From Acinetobacter phage vB_AbaA_LLY, in sequence record OQ503491.1: 42,869 nt of DNA. One strand, written 5' to 3'. Positions 7,286 through 34,780 of this stretch are shown piece by piece; the first letter of the stretch is position 1, and each line of letters starts with the position of its first letter. The notes under the pieces were generated by a model that worked only from the letters and a program-made list of their open reading frames with translations, was not told the origin of the DNA and ran no database searches. The position numbers were made by a program, and so were the translations under genes.

Positions 7286-7588
7286 ATGGCAGGGGCAGCT
7301 AAACGTAGTCGCCTCTCGGAGCTGCACCACATGTTCACCGAGGCCTTGATTGAAGAAATCAAGCAGTCCAAGGAAGATGAGGTGCCGCTCCCCGCCGCAG
7401 ATAAATCAGTTATCGCCAAGTTCTTGAAGGACAATGACATCACCGCGGACGCAGATTCCGAGGAGATGCAGGACCTTCGTGATGAATTCGATGACGAACT
7501 AGCGGCGCGCAGAGAGGCGCGTAAGCAAGAGATTCTAAATAAAGTTGGTGGTTCAGACTCTGAGGACTTACTAGAAGGAATTGTCTAA
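7286..7588 (+). CDS. Terminase small subunit (DNA maturase A) candidate, 100 aa, acidic
   Basis: Small acidic ORF immediately upstream of, and translationally coupled (ATGA overlap) to, the large terminase. Position equivalent to T7 gene 18. Confidence 0.5.
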   Translation: MAGAAKRSRLSELHHMFTEALIEEIKQSKEDEVPLPAADKSVIAKFLKDNDITADADSEEMQDLRDEFDDELAARREARKQEILNKVGGSDSEDLLEGIV

Positions 7589-8157
7589 TGATATCGGCGA
7601 AGACTGCGCGAAGACTGCGCATGCTCAACCAGAAACTTACTGGTTATAGTGTGAATCCGCGCAGTATCCCCAAAGAGGAGCGCGAGGATATCGCGATGAT
7701 GATGGCCGCCGCTCTAAGCGACTTCCGGGAATTTGCGTACATCGGTATGCGGTTCCTGGGCTTTACGCTCACGGACATGCAGGCCGACATTGCAGAGTAC
7801 ATGCAGAAGGGCCCTAGGAAGCGCATGGTGGCTGCGCAGCGTGGTGAGGCTAAGTCTACACTAGCTGCACTGTACGCCGTCTGGAGGCTCATACAGGACC
7901 AATCCTGTCGTATCCTGATTGTGTCCGGCGCGGAGAAGCAGGCGTCAGACGTAGCTAACTTAATCATTCGTATGCTGGAAACCTGGCCGCTGCTGTGCTA
8001 CTTGAAGGCCGACCCTACTCGTGGGGACCGTACTTCATTCGAAGGCTATGATGTCAACTGCGATCTGAAACCGCTGGACAAGTCCGCCAGCGTAGCCTGT
8101 GTAGGTATCACTGCATCCCTGCAGGGGAAGCGCGCGGACCTGCTGATTCCTGACGAT
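7588..8157 (+). CDS. Terminase large subunit, exon 1 (ends ...GKRADLLIPDD)
   Basis: Aligns with T7 gp19 ...TDMQADIAE(Y/F)M... through GKRADIIIADD. The ORF then hits TAA, the first nucleotides of the intron. Confidence 0.85.
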
Positions 8158-8501
8158 TAACATCATAGTCGTCATTAAACCCCTTGAATTCGGTGGAAAC
8201 CCAGACCGGGCAATACCGAGCGAAGCCTCAACTGAGGAACGTGTAACGACTATTCCGTAAGGAAGTACCAGCAAGTGCTGGGAAGCGGGGGGCCTTGACT
8301 TACTGGTCAAGTGAAGATATAGTCTACTCTGCATGGGAACATGCAGTATCTACTACAAGATTTGAGCGGTAGCCGTACTTACTCCAAGAGTACGTGCCGA
8401 TTTATCCCAGCCTCTGAGAACTTATCAGACGCAGGCAACCGTCGCTGGGGTAACAAGTAGTAGGTAGGGGGAGAGGTAGCGTCCTCCCTTTAATATACAG
8501 G
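8158..8501 (+). mobile_element. Group I self-splicing intron (ORF-less, 344 nt) in the terminase large subunit gene
   Basis: Joining 8157|8502 restores the T7 gp19-like sequence PDD|IETTKNGLTQTQREQLL (T7: ADD|[17 protein letters not shown]). Exon ends in U. P1: exon 5'-UGACGAU / intron IGS 5'-GUCGUCA with U·G at the splice site. Intron ends in G. Conserved R element GUAACGACUAUUCC and S element GAAGAUAUAGUCU are present, with a P8-like hairpin CTTGAC-ttactg-GTCAAG. Confidence 0.8.
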
Positions 8502-9788
8502 ATTGAGACCACCAAGAACGGTTTAACGCAAACCCAGCGTGAGCAGCTGCTGATGATTTCGAAAGACTTCGCAGCTATCTGTACGCACGGGGATACGCTG
8601 TACCTGGGTACACCACAGACCAAGGACAGTATCTATAAAACCCTGCCGGGACGTGGCTTCGAGGTCCGCGTGTGGCCGGGGCGCATTCCGTCTGTTGAAA
8701 TGGAAGAGCGATATGGAAGTACACTTGCTCCTTATATACTGGAGCTCATTGGGCGCGGCTATAAACGCACCGGCTTCGGCGTCGACGGGACGCTAGGCGA
8801 GAGCACGGACACCGGGCGCTACGACGAGGATGCACTGATTGAGAAGGAGCTGGACTTCGGTCCGGAAGGCTTCCAGCTGCAGTACATGCTCGACACCACC
8901 CTGTCAGACCAAATGCGTACGCGCATCAAGCTCTCGGATATGCTAGTTTACTCCGGTAGTCAGGATTCCTCCCCTGAGACGTTCTCCTACATTGCGGACC
9001 GCAGGTACCTGTACCAGCACGAGCATGAGGGGATTATGGGTCAGCAGATGTACTTCCCGGCATTCTACGGGGATATGCACCTGCCGTATCAGCATAAGGT
9101 GCTGGTGGTAGATCCGGCCGGCTGTCGCGGCGATGAAGTTTCATACGCTGCTGGTGGTGCTGCGAACTCGTACATTCACCTATTCTCAGTAGGTGGCTTC
9201 CAAGGAGGTATCAGCGAAGAGAACATTGATAAACTGATTGATCTGTGCGTAGAGTTAGACATCCCGGACATGGTGGTGGAGAGCAACATGGGGCACGGCA
9301 CCGTGTCTATGCTTATTCTGAACCGGTTACGGGAGCGGCGTCTCGTCGGTATTGGTGTACGGGACCTGAACAACTCCACGCAGAAAGAGCGTCGTATCAT
9401 CGACACAATCAGCCCAGTTACTCGTCGTCACCGCCTGGTGGTGCATGAGCGTGCTATTCACGACGATATCAGCACCTGTATGGCGTACTCACGCGATAGG
9501 CGTTGGCTGTACTCTGCGTTCGCGCAGTTGTCCGGTATCACGTACGACCGCGGTAGCCTGGCGAAGGATGACCGAGCAGATGCAATCGCCATGATGGTGG
9601 CTACGCTGAACGGGCATCTGGTGGAAGATGAGAAAGTAGTAGCTGAGCGTGAGTCTGAGAAGATGGCTCGGGCCTTCATTGAGAATCCCCTGGATTGGGC
9701 ACAGAATAAAGTGTCTAAGGGGCTCCGGGGTGTAGCTGCACGGTTACAGAACCGGGGCAGAGGTAAACAACATAGAGGAAGAAGATAA
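8502..9788 (+). CDS. Terminase large subunit, exon 2
   Basis: ...REQLLMISKDFAAICTHGDTLYLGTPQT aligns with T7 gp19 [17 protein letters not shown]...VIYLGTPQT. The C-terminal nuclease region is conserved. Confidence 0.85.
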   Translation: METTKNGLTQTQREQLLMISKDFAAICTHGDTLYLGTPQTKDSIYKTLPGRGFEVRVWPGRIPSVEMEERYGSTLAPYILELIGRGYKRTGFGVDGTLGESTDTGRYDEDALIEKELDFGPEGFQLQYMLDTTLSDQMRTRIKLSDMLVYSGSQDSSPETFSYIADRRYLYQHEHEGIMGQQMYFPAFYGDMHLPYQHKVLVVDPAGCRGDEVSYAAGGAANSYIHLFSVGGFQGGISEENIDKLIDLCVELDIPDMVVESNMGHGTVSMLILNRLRERRLVGIGVRDLNNSTQKERRIIDTISPVTRRHRLVVHERAIHDDISTCMAYSRDRRWLYSAFAQLSGITYDRGSLAKDDRADAIAMMVATLNGHLVEDEKVVAERESEKMARAFIENPLDWAQNKVSKGLRGVAARLQNRGRGKQHRGRR

Positions 9789-20680: not shown

Positions 20681-21961
20681 TTGGACCTGATAGTTGTGCG
20701 TGCGATGTGCACGCAGAAGGTATGGAACCGCCTGCGAGAGCAGATTCCTAAGTCGATGCTTGCTCCAGATACTTCGAACCTTCTGGACTGGGTGGGGCTG
20801 TACTGGAACACGTACCCGGAGCACCAGGAGGTGCAGTGGGATGCGATGCAGAGCATGCTCAACCTCCGGGCGGGGCACTTATCCCGGGAAGAACGGGTAA
20901 TCATGGACGAGCTTATGCGGGGAGTACAAGCCGTGCCGCAGGATTCTGTGGTGGGGATTGTCCAGACACTGAACGAGCTGGCCTATAGCGGGGAGGTAGC
21001 AGCGCTGACACAGCGCTACCAAGACGGCGAGGAGATTGATTACCTCCTGGAGATGAAGCACCTGCAGCGCAAGTACGGCGATGGTGCTGCAGTGCACGAG
21101 TCACTGCTTGAATGGGAGAGCGGTAGTGTTGACGAAATACTTGCCGCGACTGACGAGAGCGGCGGTCTTAAACTGGGCGTGTTCGAGCAACTCGCTAGCA
21201 ACATCCGAGGTCTACGTGGCGGGGACTGCATCGCAGTGGCTGCTCCTGTGGACTCTGGTAAAACTAGTCTGCTTGCTGCTATTGCTGTGGATTTTGCTGA
21301 GCAAATGCAGCAGCAGCCGGAAGTGTACGGGGACCGCCCTATCCTCTGGTTAGTTAACGAAGGTCCGGCGACGCGTACAGTGCCGCGGGTATATCAAGCG
21401 GCGCTGCACTGGACCCTGGCTGAGATTAAGGACCGGCACAGTAAGCAAGAGTTCGTGCCAGCCTACCTCAAGAAAGTAGGCAGGGCTGACCGGATTCGTG
21501 TTAAGGCTGCGCACTCCTTGACTATGGCGCAGATATCCACGCTCATGGAGGAGATGCGCCCTGCGGTAATCATCATCGACATGGTGGCGAACATCCGTGG
21601 CGGCACTATGGAGACCGAGCACCAGAACCTAGAAGCACGTTGGCAGGAGCTGCGTATCCTTGGGTGCGAGAATGACTGCGCTATTGTAGGGACTATGCAG
21701 CTTTCACTCGAAGGTTACAACATGCTCTTTCCGCCGCTAACTGCTATGAAGCAGAGTAAGATTGGTGTACAGGGCGCCTTGGACTTGGCAATTATGATGG
21801 GGTGCTTGGACAGAAACGAGCAGCCGCACATGCAAAACGTCCGAGGTATCAGTACCCCTAAGAACAAGATGGCACTATCTGGTAAAGAATCGCTCCTACA
21901 ATTCGAGGTAGGATTCGAGCCGGGACGTTGCCGATTTGACGAAGGCCAGATTAATAGGTGA
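20681..21961 (+). CDS. DnaB-like replicative DNA helicase (T7 gp4 helicase-domain homolog)
   Basis: Walker A AAPVDSGKTSLL; Walker B-like IIIDMV. TTG start with a strong GGAGG RBS. Confidence 0.75.
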   Translation: MDLIVVRAMCTQKVWNRLREQIPKSMLAPDTSNLLDWVGLYWNTYPEHQEVQWDAMQSMLNLRAGHLSREERVIMDELMRGVQAVPQDSVVGIVQTLNELAYSGEVAALTQRYQDGEEIDYLLEMKHLQRKYGDGAAVHESLLEWESGSVDEILAATDESGGLKLGVFEQLASNIRGLRGGDCIAVAAPVDSGKTSLLAAIAVDFAEQMQQQPEVYGDRPILWLVNEGPATRTVPRVYQAALHWTLAEIKDRHSKQEFVPAYLKKVGRADRIRVKAAHSLTMAQISTLMEEMRPAVIIIDMVANIRGGTMETEHQNLEARWQELRILGCENDCAIVGTMQLSLEGYNMLFPPLTAMKQSKIGVQGALDLAIMMGCLDRNEQPHMQNVRGISTPKNKMALSGKESLLQFEVGFEPGRCRFDEGQINR

Positions 21962-22012
21962 CTTCCCTAGCGCCTTCTACGAGGGCGCTATGTAGGTACA
22001 CAGGAGGCTACT

Positions 22013-22168
22013 ATGCTTAAACCGTCAGACATAAACTATCTCGATGATGAGGTAATCAAGGCGTACGCTGCGTCTGCAGGTACTTTCCGTAAACGGTTTG
22101 TGCTGGATAGTAGCCAGCTGATTGTGCATCTAGCTATCAATAAAGCTCGGAGGGCTAAATGGAAATGA
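22013..22168 (+). CDS. Small hypothetical protein (51 aa); not in the supplied ORF track
   Basis: AGGAGG RBS 5 nt upstream of the ATG. Overlaps the start of the HNH gene. Confidence 0.35.
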   Translation: MLKPSDINYLDDEVIKAYAASAGTFRKRFVLDSSQLIVHLAINKARRAKWK

Positions 22169-22587
22169 GTGAGTGTGTAGACCACGGTAAACGTAGACAC
22201 GCAGCAGGTTATGCCTACGTAAGACACAGCGGTAAGCGTGTACGACTACACCGTCTAATTTATTGCCAAAAAGCAGGTGTTGCTTTAGAAGATATAGACG
22301 GTTTAGTTGTACGACATACTTGCGATAATGCATGGTGCATCAACCCAGAACACCTTATCATAGGCACGCAGGCGGACAATATACGGGACGCTGTAGAGCG
22401 CGGACGCAATGCTAAAGGTTCCAGTAACGGGCAATCCAAACTAACGCCAGAAGCGGTGATGTATTGCAGGGAGCACTACGTAGCCTACCATCCAGAATTC
22501 GGCGGGGCTGCGCTGGCTAGAAGGTTCGGCGTAGGCTGTTCGGTTGTGCACGACGCTATAAAAGGAAAGACTTGGAGGGGTGTGTGA
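22159..22587 (+). CDS. Free-standing HNH homing endonuclease
   Basis: HNH core VVRHTCDNAWCINPEHLIIGTQADN (H...N...H). Located immediately upstream of, and overlapping, DNA polymerase exon 1. Confidence 0.75.
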   Translation: MEMSECVDHGKRRHAAGYAYVRHSGKRVRLHRLIYCQKAGVALEDIDGLVVRHTCDNAWCINPEHLIIGTQADNIRDAVERGRNAKGSSNGQSKLTPEAVMYCREHYVAYHPEFGGAALARRFGVGCSVVHDAIKGKTWRGV

Positions 22588-24014
22588 GCAGTATTCTATT
22601 TACAGATTATGAAACGGAGAACCACCAGTACTACGGGGGCGTTGCATCTCCATATTGCCCGGATAACTATATAGTCGAGAGCGGTTGGCGAATAGACCGC
22701 ACAAATCCGGATGGCTCTGTTGACGTAGGTACAGTGCAGAGCGTACGTTACGCTAACAAGGAGGAGTTTAAAGCGGCGCCGGTTAGCGAGTGGTTCCCCA
22801 TTCAAGAGGACACTTGGTTAATCGTAGCCCACAACCTGGCCTATGAGTGCTCTTGGTGGTTGACCTATGCACGCAAAGAGTTCGAGGCATTTTTAAAGCG
22901 CGGGGGTCGTGTATTCTGCACAATGCACGGGCACTACATTGCGTCAGACTTTCAGGACATGTACCCATCGCTCGACGAGACCGCACCTAAATACGGAGGC
23001 ACCCACAAGGTTGACGGGGTTAAGTTACTGTGGGAACAAGGTGTACGCACATCTGAAATCGACCCCATACTTTTACATGAATATCTTGTAGGGCCGAGCG
23101 GCGACATTGTGAATACCGCGGTCTGTTTCTACGGGGAATGCGCTGTATTCACAGAGCGCAACCAAATGCAGTATGTGTGGGAACGTCAAGATGCGCTACT
23201 AGCCTGGAGCTATTGCGAATTTTTTGGCCTGTTCGTGAACATGCCGATTGCTCGCAAGAACCAAGAGGAGCAGGAGCAGCGCATCCGCGAGATTAAGCAG
23301 GAGCTGCAGCAGTACATCCCGAAGGACTTGCCGGATACGCTGGATTTCAACTTCGGCTCGGACTTTCATATGTCCGCACTGGTGTACGGTGGGCCTATCA
23401 AGTACCGCAAGAAGGTTCCATACGACCCTCCGCAGTACGTTAAGGCAGACTTCTACAAGTACGAGGACGCAGAGGGTGCGCACACCTATATACCTGTACA
23501 CGACACGCACATGCAAGCACTGCAAACGGAAGGCGGGTGCTGGCGTGTAGTGACATATCGTGCGGGTAAGAACAAGGGGCTCCCTAAAGTATTCCGCCTC
23601 GATACCGAGGAAGAGAAACTTAAATGGGAAGACGACCTTTACTTCTGCCCGGGCCTAGTGAACATCCAGGAGCTTCCGGAAGTTATCCGGGAGAAGTACG
23701 CAGAGCGCGGTGAGTTCCGACAGGCGCGCACCCTGCATGACGGTACGCCAGTATACAGCACCAGCACCGACGCGATGGAGGCGCTGGCTCGCCAAGGGTT
23801 CGAGTTCTGTAAGTTGGTGAACGAACTGGCGGCGCTGGAGAAGGATACCGGCACTTACTATTTGCGAGAAGTACTGGACGCAGAAGGTAAGGTAAAAGAG
23901 CGGAAGGGGATGCTGCAGTATGTAATCCCGGAGCGTCCCGATGGTTCCGGCATCATTCACCACCGGCTGAATACATGCGCCACCGTAACCGGACGCCTGT
24001 CGGGTTCAAACCCT
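22572..24014 (+). CDS. DNA polymerase (family A), exon 1 (3'-5' exo and N-terminal polymerase region; ends ...TGRLSGSNP)
   Basis: Exo I motif LFTDYETEN. Ends in the conserved TGRLS(S)xxP motif, then an in-frame TAA that belongs to the intron. Confidence 0.85.
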
Positions 24015-24713
24015 TAACGGTTAGGGGTTTTAAAACCATGTGAACTCAGGGGAAGCCCAGACCGGGTAATCCTGAACCAATCCAGTCCCATCTACCTTCG
24101 GAGGTACATATGGACAGCATTAAGAATCTGATTGAAAACACCACCTTAACCTTAGAAGAGATTCAAGCGCAGGTGGGTTGTGGTATGCGCACGGTACGTA
24201 ATGTGTGGGCTAGTTACCCCGCCGCCTTCAGAAAGGCGCGTAAAGCGGGGTGCTATCGCAGGTCCAAGTTGGGGGATAAAAACCCTATGTTTGGCAAGCA
24301 CAGCACAGAGCACCATAATTACATCGGGGTTGTATCTGATGGGAAGGGCTACCTGATGGCACTGAAGCCAGACTGGTACACCGGGCGCAAGGGTAGTAAG
24401 CACGTGTTCGTGCACCAACTAGTTGTGTGCAAGGCATTAGGCATAACTGCTATGCCAGCTGGTTGGGTGGTACATCACTGCGATGAAAACCCTCACAACA
24501 ATGACTTCAGCAACTTAGTGTTGATGCTTAATGCAGACCATCGACGTCTGCATTCTGCACTGGCAGGTGCAACGACTATCTCGAAAGAGAGTACACTCAA
24601 GTGGGTGGAAGCGCATGGCACGCCGTGGCGTGAAGATATAGTCTGAACTGCATAGGAATATGCAGCAGCCCCGAGGGGCGGGCGCAGATTAACGAACTGC
24701 GTTGAACACAATG
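24015..24713 (+). mobile_element. Group I intron (699 nt) in the DNA polymerase gene, encoding an HNH homing endonuclease
   Basis: Splicing 24014|24714 restores RLSGSNP|NLQNLP (compare Pol I STGRLSSTDPNLQNIP). Exon ends in U. P1: exon AAACCCU pairs with intron GGGGUUU (U·G wobble). Intron ends in G. R element GCAACGACUAUCUCG and S element GUGAAGAUAUAGUCU are followed by the hairpin CTGCATAGGAATATGCAG. The 5' region is homologous to the other two introns. Confidence 0.85.
24110..24646 (+). CDS. Intron-encoded HNH homing endonuclease
   Basis: HNH motif GWVVHHCDENPHNNDFSNLVLMLNADHRRLH. The ORF's 3' end overlaps the ribozyme core (R, P8, S). Confidence 0.8.
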   Translation: MDSIKNLIENTTLTLEEIQAQVGCGMRTVRNVWASYPAAFRKARKAGCYRRSKLGDKNPMFGKHSTEHHNYIGVVSDGKGYLMALKPDWYTGRKGSKHVFVHQLVVCKALGITAMPAGWVVHHCDENPHNNDFSNLVLMLNADHRRLHSALAGATTISKESTLKWVEAHGTPWREDIV

Positions 24714-25709
24714 AACCTCCAGAACCTCCCACGAGATGGGACCAGTAAAGTAAAACAGATGTTCACCTCCCGCTTCGGGGAGAGTGGGCGCATCACTGAG
24801 GTGGACTACTCGGCACTGGAAGTGGTTATGTCCTGTGTGCACACCGGAGACAGGAAGCTGCTGAGCCTGCTGCAGAATGGTACAGATATGCACTGCTACC
24901 GCTTAGCGTTCAAGGAGGGCAAGACCTACGAAGAGATGTATGACCTCTGCCACAACGCCGATGGGCCGGACTATAAGTACTGGAAGCAGCAGCGTACGGA
25001 CATTAAGCCCCCGAGCTTTGCTGCACAGTACGGGGCTACGGCTAAAGGGATTGCGTTTGCTACGGGCTGTACAGTGGAGTATGCGCAGTCGTTCCTGGAT
25101 AACGAGGCGAAGCTGTTTCCAGACACCATCGGCTTCCGCGCTGTTGTCAAGGAAGAAGTAGAGCGTACCGGTGCAGAGGGGCGCATGTACCGAGAGCAAG
25201 CTGACGACGGCAGCTACAGAATCTACCGCATCGGGACGTGGACCAGCCCTGCTGGTGCTCGCTACAGCTTCCGTCAGAAAGAGCAGTGGAAGGAAGTTGT
25301 GCCTGGGCAGCGTAAGCAGAAGGTAATGGACTACAAGGAAACAGAGATGGCAAATTTCTGGTGCCAAGGAGAAGCCTTCTTCTTAATGTGTGTGGCAGCC
25401 GGTATGGTTCTGCGTGCATTTTTGGCGCGGGACTGGTTCGACAATCAGGTGTGCCTGATTACGAACGTGCACGATGCGCTCTATACCGATTCTGCTAATG
25501 AGGAGATTGCTGTGTTAGCGGGAAACCTGGTTAAGCAATGCATGGAAGAGGCACCTAAGCGCATACACCAGCTCTGGCCTAACTACGGGATTATAGGGGA
25601 GGTACCCTTCCCCGCAGAATGTGAGCACGGGCCAAGTATGTACGCTAAGACAACTACACCAACAGTAGAGGAATATTATGCCGAAAGAAATGGGCCCGGA
25701 CCTGCGTGA
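24714..25709 (+). CDS. DNA polymerase (family A), exon 2 (palm/fingers: motifs A, B, C)
   Basis: Motif A VDYSALEVV, motif B RTDIKPPSFAAQYGATAKG, motif C ITNVHDALYTD. Confidence 0.85.
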   Translation, partial: NLQNLPRDGTSKVKQMFTSRFGESGRITEVDYSALEVVMSCVHTGDRKLLSLLQNGTDMHCYRLAFKEGKTYEEMYDLCHNADGPDYKYWKQQRTDIKPPSFAAQYGATAKGIAFATGCTVEYAQSFLDNEAKLFPDTIGFRAVVKEEVERTGAEGRMYREQADDGSYRIYRIGTWTSPAGARYSFRQKEQWKEVVPGQRKQKVMDYKETEMANFWCQGEAFFLMCVAAGMVLRAFLARDWFDNQVCLITNVHDALYTDSANEEIAVLAGNLVKQCMEEAPKRIHQLWPNYGIIGEVPFPAECEHGPSMYAKTTTPTVEEYYAERNGPGPA

Positions 25710-26169
25710 GGTTTTCACTTACGACGCAGAGACTGGGGAGTTACGGTGGAATGTATCGAGGGGAAAGGCAGCTGCAGGGTCGCTAGCCAACTCTAGAACC
25801 TATGACGGGAGATACTACAAGGCCACTTATAAGGGTACTGTCCTACTAGCTCACAGATTGGCGTGGTACTTACACACTGGAGAACAACCTCCCGACGTCA
25901 TAGACCATGCGGACGGTGACGGGCTCAATAACTGCTGGGACAATTTACGCGCCGCAAGTTCCAGCAGTAACCAGTGCAACATAAGCGCCACAGTCAAATC
26001 CACTTCCGGTATTAAAGGGGTGTTCCCCATCCGTGGTGGAAAGCTCTGGCGAGCGGAAGTATGTATTAACGGCGCGCGTTACCAGAAACATAGCGCCGAC
26101 CCACTAAAGCTAGAGGCCTGGGTTAAAGCTAAGAGAGAATCGCTGCACGGCAAGTTTGCTCGACACTGA
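25678..26169 (+). CDS. Free-standing HNH endonuclease with AP2-type DNA-binding domain
   Basis: HNH VIDHADGDGLNNCWDNLRAAS. AP2-like segment GIKGVFPIRGGKLWRAEVCINGARY. Overlaps the 3' end of the polymerase gene. Confidence 0.7.
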   Translation: MPKEMGPDLREVFTYDAETGELRWNVSRGKAAAGSLANSRTYDGRYYKATYKGTVLLAHRLAWYLHTGEQPPDVIDHADGDGLNNCWDNLRAASSSSNQCNISATVKSTSGIKGVFPIRGGKLWRAEVCINGARYQKHSADPLKLEAWVKAKRESLHGKFARH

Positions 26170-26184
26170 TAAGGAGAAGGTAGA

Positions 26185-26406
26185 ATGAATATTAAACCAG
26201 GCAGCATTGTAGAGTTATTAGAACTGGGACCAGAACCTATCGGTCCAGAATTGAGTAGTTACTTCGTGCCTGGTTCACAGCACCGGGTTATCTCTTATTG
26301 CGAAGAAACTTGGGAGGTAGAACTGATAGACCCTACGAATGGTTCAGAAGAACCTGGGGATGGTATTACCTTCTTCCCGGGAGAGTATAAACTTATCGTG
26401 GAGTAG
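26185..26406 (+). CDS. Hypothetical small protein (73 aa)
   Basis: AGGAGAAGG RBS upstream of the ATG. Confidence 0.4.
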   Translation: MNIKPGSIVELLELGPEPIGPELSSYFVPGSQHRVISYCEETWEVELIDPTNGSEEPGDGITFFPGEYKLIVE

Positions 26407-31527: not shown

Positions 31528-33319
31528 ATGATTCACGCACTGAATACGGTTGTAGTATCAGAGGAAGCACTGGTGAAACGCCAGCTGGAGCTTGAAGAGG
31601 CCTATAAGATTCGCGGAATCGAGCGGGCACGTAAGCTGATTACGGACGCATTGCAGAACGGTGGGATTATGAACCTGCCGATGACGCAGCGTATGCTCAC
31701 CTCGGCATATGAGGTGGCTGCTGCCGCTATCGATGAGATGCGAAATGTCAAAGCCCCGGGCATTGGTGGGAAGTACCGCCGGTTCTTGCGCTTAGTCCCC
31801 TTGGATGTCCTGACCACCCTGAGCCTGTGCACAATGTTTGAGGCATTCAGCGTCGCCCCCGGCGAGTCCGCTAGTCGCCGCCAGACTGCACAGGCGGTAA
31901 TGTCCGCACTGGGCCGGAACGTACAATCGGAGCTGCTGGCACTGCAGTTACGCAACGTAGCCCCGGCGTACATGGACCGTGTATACGAGTACCTCACAGA
32001 GCGTCGTACGAAGTCCCCTACGCACATCCTGCGTACGCTCCGTGCCAGTGCCGAGAACGTGCACTATGGGCACGAGCCTTGGACCAATGCCCAGAACATC
32101 TCCGTAGGGCGTCTGCTGTGTGCCGCAGTGTTTGAGACGGGCCTGTTCCAGTGGAAGAACTGTAGCGGTAATCTGAGCATGCTATACCCCGCAGACAACG
32201 TTATGGAAGCATTCCAGCAGTTAGTGGAATCTGCCGACACTGTGACGATGAAGCCGCCTATGCTGGTACCGCCGGTGCGGCACACTACTCTGTGGGATGG
32301 TGGGTACCTTACCCCTATCGACAATCGCGGTACCTATCATAATTCTCACATTGACCGCGCGCGTCTCCGCGAAGTAGCGGAAGCATTTAAGTCCGCGGAC
32401 GGAATCAAGAAGGCGCTTAATAAGGCACAGGAAACCCCATACCGCATTAATAAGCGCATACTGGAACTGGTGCAAGAAGCACGGGCCCTGGGTGTTGGGA
32501 TAGGCATGCCTCGCTCAGTACCAGAGCCGAAACCGGAGTGGTATCTGGACGGGGTTCCGAAAGAGAACTACACCGAGGAAGAGCTTGACCGATTCGGTGA
32601 GTGGAAGACGCGCATGTCTCTATGGTATAGCGCTGACCGTAAGCGTGTATCGCAACTACGCAGCCTTCTGACTACGTTGGAAATGGCGGAGGAATTCAAA
32701 GATGAGAAAGCCTTGTACTTCCCGACTTGTGTGGACTGGCGTTACCGCCTGTACTTCAAGTCCTCGCTGCACCCCCAAGGTTCGGATTTGCAGAAAGCCC
32801 TTCTTGAGTTTGGCAGAGGAAAACCTCTGGGTGAGCGGGGACTATTCTGGCTCAAGGTACACGTCGCCACATGCTTTGGTTATGACAAAACCTTATTCGA
32901 AGACCGCGCAGCTTGGGTTGATGCGAACTTTGCAGCGCTCGGAGAGCTTGTGGTTTCACCGTTTGATTGCCCTGCTTTTGCCGAGGCAGACAGTCCCTGG
33001 TGTTTTCTGGCCGCCGCTATCGACCTGGTTAATGCTGTGCGTTCTGGATGCCCAGAAGAGTATATTAGCCGAATCCCGGTGGCTATGGACGCTACAAACT
33101 CAGGTGGACAACATCTCTCAGCGCTTCTGAGAGACCCTGTGGGCGGTCGTCTGACGAACCTGTACTGGGAGGGTAACGATAAGAAAGCGGACCTGTACAT
33201 GGACGTGAAGCGCCGTACAGACGAGAAGGTGATACTGGACCTGGACAAGGAGGATTTCGTTATCCAGAGCACGTACTGGAGAGAGAACGAAATCACCCGC
33301 AGCATGACCAAAAGACCGT
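31528..33319 (+). CDS. Single-subunit phage RNA polymerase, exon 1 (ends ...ITRSMTKRP + first nt of a Ser codon)
   Basis: T7-RNAP-like throughout. The ORF runs to the conserved TKR(S/P)(V/S)MT motif, then a TAA within the intron. Confidence 0.8.
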
Positions 33320-34103
33320 TAATGCACATCGGCGGTCTATAAACTAGGTGAATTCAGGGGACGGCTAGAACAGCCAATCCTGAGCGAAGCTACTACTGTG
33401 CGGCCTTATAGGAGGTCGTATGGAAACTAGGCAGTGCACAAAATGTAACGAAGTTAAACCTCTATCATCCTTCTCTAAAGGCACGCGAAGCGCAAACACG
33501 TTCCGCGGTGCCAGGGAGGTGGGCAAAGTAATTTATAAACCTACGTGTAAAATGTGCGATGCCGCCTACGCCAAGGCGTGGCGGGCAGCAAACCCAGATT
33601 ATCAGAAGAGGCAGAGAGCTAAACGAGCAAGGGTCGAGGTCTTGTCTATAGACCCTATGCTTAAATCCTTCGTGTCTTGTCGGGTGGCAGATGCAAAGGC
33701 TAGGGCAGCAGCTCGTAATTTGCCTTATGACTTGGATAGGGAATACATGTTGGCTATATGGGACGGGGTGTGCGCACTGTCCGGGGTGCCGATTAATTGC
33801 CACAAAGGCAGTATGTACATCGGCTCCATTGATAGAGTTAACCCCGAACTTGGTTATGTTAAGGGGAACGTGCAGTGGGTATCTTGGCAAGTTAATCGGG
33901 CTAAGGGAGAATACTCGCTGGAAGATTTAATTACAATGTGCCGCGCAGTAGTAGAACGTGCAGAGACTATCCGAAAGGAGTAGGGCCAAGCGGCCCGAAG
34001 CGCCTAGCCCCTTTAGTGGGTGATGATATAGTCCGACCTGTATGGGGACATACAGCAGCCGTAAGGCGGGGGATACCTAGCGAGTATCCCCGAACACTTT
34101 TTG
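33320..34103 (+). mobile_element. Group I intron (784 nt) in the phage RNA polymerase gene, encoding a Zn-finger/HNH-like endonuclease
   Basis: Splice 33319|34104 gives ...ITRSMTKRP-S-MTYFYSATV (T7 RNAP: VTRSVTKRSVMTLAYGSKE; mitochondrial RNAPs: VMTNVYGVT). Exon ends in U. P1: exon AGACCGU pairs with intron GCGGUCU (U·G). Intron ends in G. R element GCAGAGACUAUCCG, P8-like GGGCCAAGCGGCCC, S element GAUGAUAUAGUCCG, and the hairpin CTGTATGGGGACATACAG. The 5' region GAATTCAGGGG...CAATCCTGAGCGAAGC is homologous to the other two introns. Confidence 0.75.
33420..33983 (+). CDS. Intron-encoded endonuclease (N-terminal CxxC...CxxC zinc ribbon; C-terminal HNH/His-Me-finger-like motif)
   Basis: CTKCNEV...CKMCD zinc ribbon, then GSIDRVNPELGYVKGNVQWVSWQVNRAKG, which resembles an HNH/endo VII-type beta-beta-alpha motif with a trailing Asn/Lys. 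Good RBS (AGGAGG) before the ATG. Confidence 0.55.
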   Translation: METRQCTKCNEVKPLSSFSKGTRSANTFRGAREVGKVIYKPTCKMCDAAYAKAWRAANPDYQKRQRAKRARVEVLSIDPMLKSFVSCRVADAKARAAARNLPYDLDREYMLAIWDGVCALSGVPINCHKGSMYIGSIDRVNPELGYVKGNVQWVSWQVNRAKGEYSLEDLITMCRAVVERAETIRKE

Positions 34104-34780
34104 CGATGACTTACTTCTACAGCGCTACGGTGCGTAGCTGTAGTGATTATATCTTTGCAGGTGCCTGTGAAGAGGGGTACGAAGGAACGGATACACATAG
34201 TCTATGGAACCTATCCTGCTACCTGGCACCGCGTATGCGTACCGCTATTGAGGAGGCAAACCCAGCTGCGGCAGCAGTTATGGGGTACTTGCAGAACCTC
34301 GCTAGACGTGTACCAGCAAGCCAGCACCTGCAGTGGACTACGCCGCTAGGCGGGCTTGTAATGAACCGCTACACGCAGCGTGAAGAAGTGCGGGTACGCA
34401 TTGACTGTATGAACCTCACCATCATGCGCGTGCATAATCGGGATTTCAAGACCTGCAACAAGCGCAAGGCAGCCTCGGGGATTGCCCCGAACTTTGTGCA
34501 CAGCCTGGATAGTACGCACTTGATGATGGTTCTATGTGCCGCCGAGGGTCTGGACATTGTGCCGATTCACGACTCCCTAGCTACACATGCAGCCGATGTT
34601 GATACTATGCACCGGCACATCCGCGAGCAGTTTGTGCGTCTCTACGAAGAGCACGACCTTCTTGGGGATATCACTCGCGCGGCGGCAGCAGCTGGGGCGG
34701 ACTTGACGGATTTGGATATGCCTGAGGTAGGTACCCTGGACATCCGGCAAGTGCTAGAATCCCCTTTCTTCTTTTCATAA
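34104..34780 (+). CDS. Single-subunit phage RNA polymerase, exon 2 (C-terminal palm/thumb: GIAPNFVHSLDSTHL ... ILESPFFFS)
   Basis: Conserved T7 RNAP motif C region QESGIAPNFVHSQDGSHL and the C-terminal foot DILESDFAFA are matched. Confidence 0.8.

Follow-up and report, generated by a model that had tools for sequence, protein, structure and literature searches.

A probable self-splicing and mobile group I intron, carrying a gene for an HNH homing endonuclease, interrupts the DNA polymerase gene of Acinetobacter phage vB_AbaA_LLY

The family-A DNA polymerase gene of Acinetobacter phage vB_AbaA_LLY (sequence record OQ503491.1; the whole stretch of 42,869 nucleotides is hereafter referred to as the window) is found as two open reading frames (ORFs) with an HNH endonuclease ORF between them. 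This raises the question of whether the polymerase is made as two polypeptides or is encoded by one gene interrupted by an element that is removed from RNA. A first-pass annotation of the window proposed that positions 24015-24713 are a group I intron carrying an HNH homing endonuclease gene, and every sequence element that it listed is present where it was said to be. We conclude, with a probability of about 0.9, that 24015-24713 is a group I intron which splices itself and is mobile, and that it encodes an HNH homing endonuclease. An exact insertion, a covarying fold of subgroup IA2, an intact HNH gene homologous to an experimentally tested nicking enzyme, a sporadic distribution and a co-conversion footprint were all observed. 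The proposal is further borne out by an Rfam match and by homology of both intron and endonuclease to those of cyanophage Pf-WMP3, whose intron self-splices. The same HNH protein, with no residue changed, is encoded by a contig of 42,926 bp in NCBI assembly GCA_030081565.1; over the 6,537 bases compared, that contig and the window differ by one. The window is therefore an essentially complete phage genome. Megablast with the polymerase region 22572-25709 matched 279 phage records, 232 of them from Klebsiella KP34-like Drulisvirus (Autographiviridae), and judged by these matches the polymerase gene is grouped with those of Klebsiella Drulisvirus phages. The polymerase exons, the intron with its ribozyme helices and the endonuclease gene with its hairpin all lie on the plus strand.

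Exon 1 occupies 22572..24014 in the ORF list, starting with TTG at 22572 or, according to the annotation of relatives, at 22584. It ends in ...TGRLSGSNP, and its weak match to Pfam DNA_pol_A ends at profile position 126. The ORF itself (22572-24017) has the terminus ...ATVTGRLSGSNP, also written ...NTCATVTGRLSGSNP, and is closed by TAA at 24015-24017. Exon 2 (24714..25709) starts with NLQNLPRD and matches DNA_pol_A with an E value of 9e-17 over profile positions 127-378. Its ORF, 24702-25709, reads M-N-T-M-NLQNLPRD, with NLQNLPRD beginning at 24714, 12 nt past the ORF start, just as the first-pass annotation had it. The profile is thus split at 126|127, and excision of 24015-24713 joins ...TGRLSGSNP to NLQNLPRD, restoring the motif as had been proposed. 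In three relatives, RCIP0014, phi1_146044 and RCIP0099, the polymerase ORF runs through the site without a break. Both exons are collinear with these uninterrupted polymerases, and in a MAFFT alignment each relative lacks exactly 699 columns, which are the proposed intron. Alignment of DNA and protein alone leaves the boundary ambiguous by 1 nt, 24015-24713 or 24014-24712, with identical protein. The former was chosen because it places a U at position -1 in a U·G pair and a G at the end of the intron and allows the P10 pairing. The insertion point separates P from N in the motif TGRLSxxxP|NLQNxP of the family-A polymerase gene, which corresponds to Pro674|Asn675 in E. coli Pol I numbering.

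Could the polymerase be genuinely split, with polypeptides of 481 and about 331 amino acids assembling without splicing and a free-standing HNH gene lying between their genes? Three separate ORFs can indeed be called, GenBank annotations of homologues often give "DNA polymerase / HNH / DNA polymerase" as separate coding sequences, and ORF 24702 has a possible TTG start. No evident Shine-Dalgarno sequence, however, precedes 24702, the gene is uninterrupted in close relatives, and the break falls inside the most conserved polymerase motif, where the first-pass annotation had put it, between adjacent positions of the Pfam profile. A complete group I fold with strong covariation would be needless in a spacer, and the homologous Pf-WMP3 element is spliced (PMC3428280). 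We consider a split enzyme very improbable.

The predicted ribozyme of the intron (699 nt, subgroup IA2) has UAA, which closes the reading frame of exon 1, as its first three bases and the omega-G, G24713, as its last. By sequence and fold the P1 hairpin (24008..24030) pairs AAACCCU (24008-24014) with the internal guide GGGGUUU (24024-24030), and the U24014·G24024 pair stands at the 5' splice site; the first-pass annotation had read this helix correctly. GGUU in the P1 loop (24019-24022) can pair with AACC of exon 2 (24714-24717) to form P10. The 5' half of the core (24036..24078), as placed by the Rfam alignment, comprises the 5' strand of P3 (24036-24042), P4 (24046-24051/24070-24075), P5 (24056-24058/24064-24066) and the 5' strand of P6 (24076-24078). 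In the 3' half (24566..24713), placed by the Rfam alignment and folding, are the 3' strand of P6 (24566-24568), P7 (24574-24578/24639-24643), the 3' strand of P3 (24612-24618) and P8 (24619-24623/24628-24632). P7.1 (24579-24582/24587-24590) and P7.2 (24594-24598/24603-24607) are joined by a GUA linker (24591-24593), and P9 (24648-24654/24659-24665), P9.1 (24669-24671/24676-24678) and P9.2 (24681-24687/24697-24703) precede the omega-G. The R and S elements named earlier are located at 24572-24579 (ACGACUAU) and 24632-24644 (GAAGAUAUAGUCU), respectively. GUA-joined P7.1 and P7.2 together with the lack of P2 are the IA2 pattern of the Pf-WMP3 and T7-like phage introns (PMC3428280); in the window intron P7.1 and P7.2 lie between P7 and P3', P2 is absent and the last base is G.

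A scan of the window against Rfam group I models, which the first-pass annotation had suggested, gave a match to RF00028 when permissive filters were used. The match (24005-24665) covers the full model with 484 nt inserted in the P6 loop, scores 36.1 bits and has an E value of 2e-7 locally or 9.6e-6 for the whole window. The default scan at the gathering threshold missed this intron and reported only another one, in the terminase gene (8097-8346). The low score can be ascribed to the ORF insertion in P6, since the score exceeds the gathering value, at 69.7 bits, in an ORF-less homologue (core identity 81%) from Xanthomonas phage Valrath, whereas ORF-carrying homologues all score 30-38 bits.

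The fold was then compared among homologues. Eight intron cores were aligned with the ORF loop taken out, and helices P3, P4, P5, P6, P7 (with the pseudoknot), P7.1, P7.2, P8, P9 and P9.2 were defined from the window sequence. Standard pairs filled 97.2% of the 422 cells, and 19 of the 53 pairs in these 10 helices had changed on both sides. Neither the paired fraction nor the count of pairs changed on both sides was attained in any of 500 shuffles; further pair types were not significantly numerous, 48 of the 500 shuffles having reached their count. When the partners were slid by 1-3 columns as a control, 29-42% of cells were paired and 1-4 pairs covaried. P3 has three covarying pairs and P5 two, P4 and P7 are invariant, and compensatory changes are found in each of P7.1, P7.2, P8, P9 and P9.2. 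P1 is preserved through changes of both strands (CAACCCU/GGGGUUG in PPWS1, CAACCUU/GAGGUUG in phiL7), and P10 follows the sequence of exon 2 (AUAU/AUAU in AbpL, UUUG/CAAA in phiB1_1, CUG/CAG in phiL7).

When a polymerase motif is interrupted by a block with a nuclease gene, the block might also be an intein, since inteins favour such sites too, or a group II intron. The sequence refutes both: the first intron codon is an in-frame stop, the HNH ORF is out of frame with both exons, Pfam finds no intein or reverse-transcriptase domain, and RF00028 is the sole Rfam family matched by the block. Either reading is left with a negligible probability.

The closest characterized relative is the 672-nt IA2 intron of cyanophage Pf-WMP3, located in the polymerase gene between Pro363 and Asn364, which is site 674 (PMC3428280). 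Experiments have established that this intron is self-splicing and that its HNH endonuclease, I-PfoP3I, is a nicking enzyme whose recognition needs positions -3 to +11, CCT|AACATCCAACA (PMC3428280). The two introns occupy the same site, Pro|Asn of ...SxxP|N(L/I)Q(N/Q)(L/I)P, and have in common the IA2 class without P2, the GUA-joined P7.1/P7.2, the UAA start and covariation in P3. In both, the ORF starts in P6a behind a hairpin holding the Shine-Dalgarno sequence and extends into P7. The ribozymes align end to end with 57% identity, and the HNH proteins are 45% identical over 161 residues (E 2e-40). The window site, CCT|AACCTCCAGAA, equals the I-PfoP3I recognition stretch at 11 of 14 positions, a likeness that is suggestive only. 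The window intron differs by the additional 3' hairpins P9.1 and P9.2 and by a protein tail longer by 17 residues. Moreover, Pf-WMP3 is a cyanophage and ours an enterobacterial Drulisvirus, and Pf-WMP3 is the one of the two for which splicing and nicking were tested.

The precedent put forward in the first-pass annotation was the polymerase intron of T7-like phages PhiI/W31 with its endonuclease I-TslI. The comparison holds in kind, as that intron, too, is of the IA2 class and carries an HNH gene in P6a within a polymerase gene. It fails in position: the PhiI/W31 site is given as 881, about 200 codons downstream of the window site at 674, a figure taken from PMC3428280 alone. I-TslI accordingly gives way to I-PfoP3I as nearest precedent. 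Yersinia phage Yepe2 was considered as a stand-in for PhiI, but its insertion, in motif B, encodes a different, putative HNH protein, has no Rfam match and says nothing about PhiI/W31. This block in the T7-like gene 5 of Yepe2 (L017, about 2000-2860) follows ...RDNAKTF, contains a 144-residue ORF in which a CHNCN motif is found, resembles the 3' core of the window intron over about 140 nt and matches no Rfam family at E ≤ 0.001. Site 674 is common to the introns of SPO1, SP82, Bastille and Pf-WMP3, while the phiL7 intron is at 676 (PMC3428280). The SPO1, SP82 and Bastille elements (I-HmuI, I-HmuII, I-BasI) thus resemble the window intron in site, in being group I introns that encode HNH nicking enzymes and in interrupting a family-A polymerase gene (PMC3428280). 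Their endonucleases are, however, of another type, and membership of the window protein in the I-HmuI type was rejected for want of detectable similarity in a search against solved structures. Splicing has also been reported for the polymerase intron of LUZ24 (PMC10914365).

The HNH homing endonuclease gene (24110..24646) encodes 178 amino acids and is looped out of P6, with the HNH motif at residues ~100-148. The protein matches Pfam HNH_3 with 31 bits (cut-off 24.8) and PHROG 7545 with an E value of 3e-49, and its family comprises 489 protein clusters at E ≤ 1e-10. The residues H123, D125, N130, N131, N135 and H148 are the same in all 10 homologues compared, and conservation of H122 and H144 is 90% or higher. 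The ORF traverses P6', P7, P7.1, P7.2, P3' and P8 and stops at a UGA inside element S, so that, as noted in the first-pass annotation, its 3' end overlaps the ribozyme core; the shared last ~80 nt encode the C-terminal ~27 residues. The conserved tail GATTISKESTLKWVEAHGTP is thus dictated by the ribozyme, because the ORF runs through the core to the UGA in S. The ORF-less Valrath intron has the same RNA where this tail is encoded.

Upstream of the ATG at 24110, the Shine-Dalgarno sequence GGAGG (24100-24104) is predicted by folding to be paired within a UACCU/AGGUA hairpin (24093..24106). Across 9 homologues 95.6% of the cells of this hairpin are paired and 2 pairs covary, and this conservation suggests that HNH translation is restrained, as has been proposed for related introns (PMC3428280). 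A scan of 21900-26400 for σ70 promoters and terminators returned fewer sites than shuffled sequences, with a tool that leaves out promoters of phage polymerases; the σ70 scan thus gives no support for a separate promoter of the HNH gene.

Taken with the precedents, these features allow the following course of events to be proposed. The whole polymerase gene would be transcribed as a single pre-mRNA, and ribosomes translating exon 1 would halt at the UAA with which the intron opens, before entering the ribozyme. The RNA would fold into P1-P10, guanosine would attack after U24014 and exon 1 would then attack after G24713. Ligation of CCU|AAC should yield an mRNA for an 812-residue polymerase with the intact motif TGRLSGSNPNLQNLP. 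With its ribosome-binding site held in the conserved hairpin, the HNH protein is probably expressed at a low level. Judging from its homologue I-PfoP3I, it most likely introduces a nick into the coding strand of alleles without the intron, a few bases upstream of the site (~-4), and would recognize roughly -3 to +11, CCU|AACCUCCAGAA. That the specific position and polarity of the nick match those of I-PfoP3I is, on this analogy, about an even bet. Repair from an intron-carrying genome would copy the intron and short flanking tracts of exon into the cut allele, which is homing.

The distribution of the intron was examined next. In the 279 records with a similar polymerase gene, coverage of the query is always below 80%, and the intron is absent from all of them. 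No Klebsiella phage in a collection of 50,697 records carries it; Klebsiella matches to the intron alone (blastn) are short and fall in the 3' core of other introns. At the site, intronless alleles read ...AACCCAAACCTCCAGAACC... with CCA|AACCTCCAGAA (RCIP0014 type) or ...TCACCGAATCTGCAGAACC... (RCIP0099 type). A copy 99.3% identical to the window intron (5 mismatches in 699 nt), with an HNH protein 99% identical, is present on an ENA metagenome contig (L015) within a divergent polymerase background. This contig and the window agree at every base over 21 nt upstream of the intron (first mismatch at 23993) and 98 nt downstream (first mismatch at 24812). Past these borders the polymerase exons are 56-93% identical; upstream, nearly every third base differs in 23945-23993, and identity farther out is 56-70%. 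The sharp co-conversion borders of the L015 copy indicate recent homing.

These data bear on the possibility that the intron is real but its endonuclease is inactive for homing, either decaying or acting as a splicing helper, with the intron vertically inherited and fixed. Homing activity of the HNH protein is a prediction, homing endonuclease genes commonly degenerate once fixed, and ORF-less relatives of the same intron exist, Valrath being one. Yet here the ORF is of full length with all catalytic columns conserved, and the protein of the metagenomic copy is 99% identical. The intron stands in two divergent polymerase backgrounds with sharp co-conversion borders, and the nearest relatives lack it. 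The pattern is that of an element still invading, and we regard loss of homing activity as improbable, if somewhat less so than a split polymerase.

Several points weigh against a self-splicing, mobile intron at 24015-24713. We infer both splicing and endonuclease activity in the window phage from sequence. The score of 36.1 bits is below the RF00028 gathering score of 50, so the block did not pass this threshold. The structure of I-HmuI is solved, and a search of the HNH protein against solved structures, I-HmuI included, returned no relative at E ≤ 1 apart from an irrelevant viral glycoprotein. The predicted polarity and position of the nick derive from a homologue that is 45% identical. The co-conversion footprint attests that the intron moved, not which nuclease caused the movement, and two free-standing HNH genes, 22159-22587 and 25678-26169, flank the polymerase gene. 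These overlap its start and stop, respectively, and match HNH_3 with E values of 1e-7 and 1.5e-12 and PHROGs 59/6254 and 99. The downstream gene, 25678-26169, is present in RCIP0099 and absent from RCIP0014 and L015, the gap in the latter being 524 nt (25644-26167).

Blastn found the same element, ribozyme together with ORF, in polymerase genes of many phages, and in Valrath a version without the ORF. In Pectobacterium phage PPWS1 the intron has 78% nucleotide identity over 94% of its length, and the gp19 protein is 78% identical. Other members of the family are found in Acinetobacter Friunavirus phages (AbpL, APK32), E. coli phages PhAPEC5 and PhAPEC7, Pseudomonas phage phiB1_1 and its relatives, Dickeya phage BF25/12, Xanthomonas phage phiL7 and Providencia phage PS3, with protein identities of 58-69% and core RNA identities of 72-88%. 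GenBank records already describe the PPWS1 and PhAPEC5 elements as polymerase introns, with an "HNH endonuclease inducing intron mobility", and the annotation of PhAPEC5/7 reads "DNAP split by an intron of 672 bp". The intron and endonuclease are an addition to a known, experimentally characterized family, and a specialist is unlikely to be surprised by them. A search of the literature turned up no paper on group I introns in Klebsiella Drulisvirus polymerase genes.

Family members fall at two insertion sites 6 nt apart. In the window, PPWS1, AbpL, PhAPEC5 and Pf-WMP3 the intron follows Pro (CCU|AAC, site 674); in phiL7, phiB1_1, BF25/12, PS3 and Valrath it is 6 nt downstream, after Asn-Leu (CUU|CAG, NL|Q, site 676). 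The internal guide is GGGGUU in the 674 group and GAGGUU in the 676 group. Though their sites differ, the window and phiB1_1 cores are 88% identical, and endonucleases are up to 67% identical across sites. Within Asn-Pro-Asn-Leu, the hexamers that end the 5' exon at the two sites, AACCCU and AACCUU, amount to a quasi-repeat. Since G·U wobble would let a guide of the window type pair with either of them, a shift by reverse splicing into the neighbouring site would be possible. Tentatively, and with less than even odds, the lineage may have moved, once or several times, from one insertion site to another in this motif of the polymerase. If true, this would be a natural, datable case in which a group I intron "slid" independently of the endonuclease target.

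Klebsiella phage RCIP0099 is the closest complete genome, a near-twin in which the ends of the polymerase gene are 98-100% identical to those of the window and the 24015 intron is absent. It has a 230-nt ORF-less group I intron of its own in motif B of the polymerase (KPPSFA|AQYG; RF00028 70.6 bits; L001, 3224-3432), at the equivalent of window position 25021|25022. Polymerase identity between the two phages dips around both intron sites, to 68-76% next to the 24015 site and 50-63% around 24900-24990. The dips suggest that exon tracts linked to introns may have been exchanged or may compete. An ORF-less polymerase intron is also present in Xanthomonas phage phiXacJX1, at a second site, ...FQR|AYGAG (62.8 bits).

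The window contains further group I introns outside the DNA polymerase gene. The terminase intron at 8097-8346 is ORF-less, lies between ORFs 7588-8160 and 8553-9788 and scores 68.2 bits with RF00028, above the gathering score. It interrupts the gene of the terminase large subunit, the downstream ORF carrying the RNaseH-like domain of T7 terminase. Most Klebsiella relatives cover just 84% of the terminase stretch and apparently lack this intron; a few have larger insertions at the terminase site, annotated as HNH or GIY-YIG genes. A third, candidate intron (33320-34103; Rfam match 33251-34055, RF00028 30.3 bits, E 5e-4) is located in the gene of a T7-type RNA polymerase, whose exon ORFs 31528-33342 and 33938-34780 match Pfam RNA_pol positions 1-164 and 164-366. 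Its putative boundaries were set by eye from a P1 formed by GACCGU (33314-19) and GCGGUC (33332-37) and an omega-G at 34103, and the predicted splice product reads ...TRSMTKRP-S-MTYFYSAT. The ORF within it (33420-33983, 187 amino acids) has no Pfam match and matches PHROG 1035, "endonuclease VII", with an E value of 2e-29.

For annotation, our reading means that two "DNA polymerase" ORFs and an "HNH endonuclease" should become one spliced polymerase gene and an intron-encoded homing endonuclease; without joined annotation a phage of the therapeutic type seems to have a broken polymerase. A 99%-identical intron in two polymerase backgrounds, with borders 21 nt upstream and 98 nt downstream, is a clean natural example of homing. 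With the RNA polymerase candidate counted, three of the essential genes in a 43-kb genome hold a group I intron each, which makes this phage convenient for studying intron load, exchange across host genera and intron competition, its near-twin RCIP0099 having a different polymerase intron. Knowledge of how such introns work is unchanged by the 24015, terminase or RNA polymerase introns.

A related core occurs in yet another replication gene. In Erwinia phage VL73 (L013, 2001-2707) a core that matches RF00028 with 35 bits is found together with a different HNH protein (28% identical) in the DNA primase/helicase gene. Similar ribozyme cores therefore pair with other endonucleases in other replication genes.

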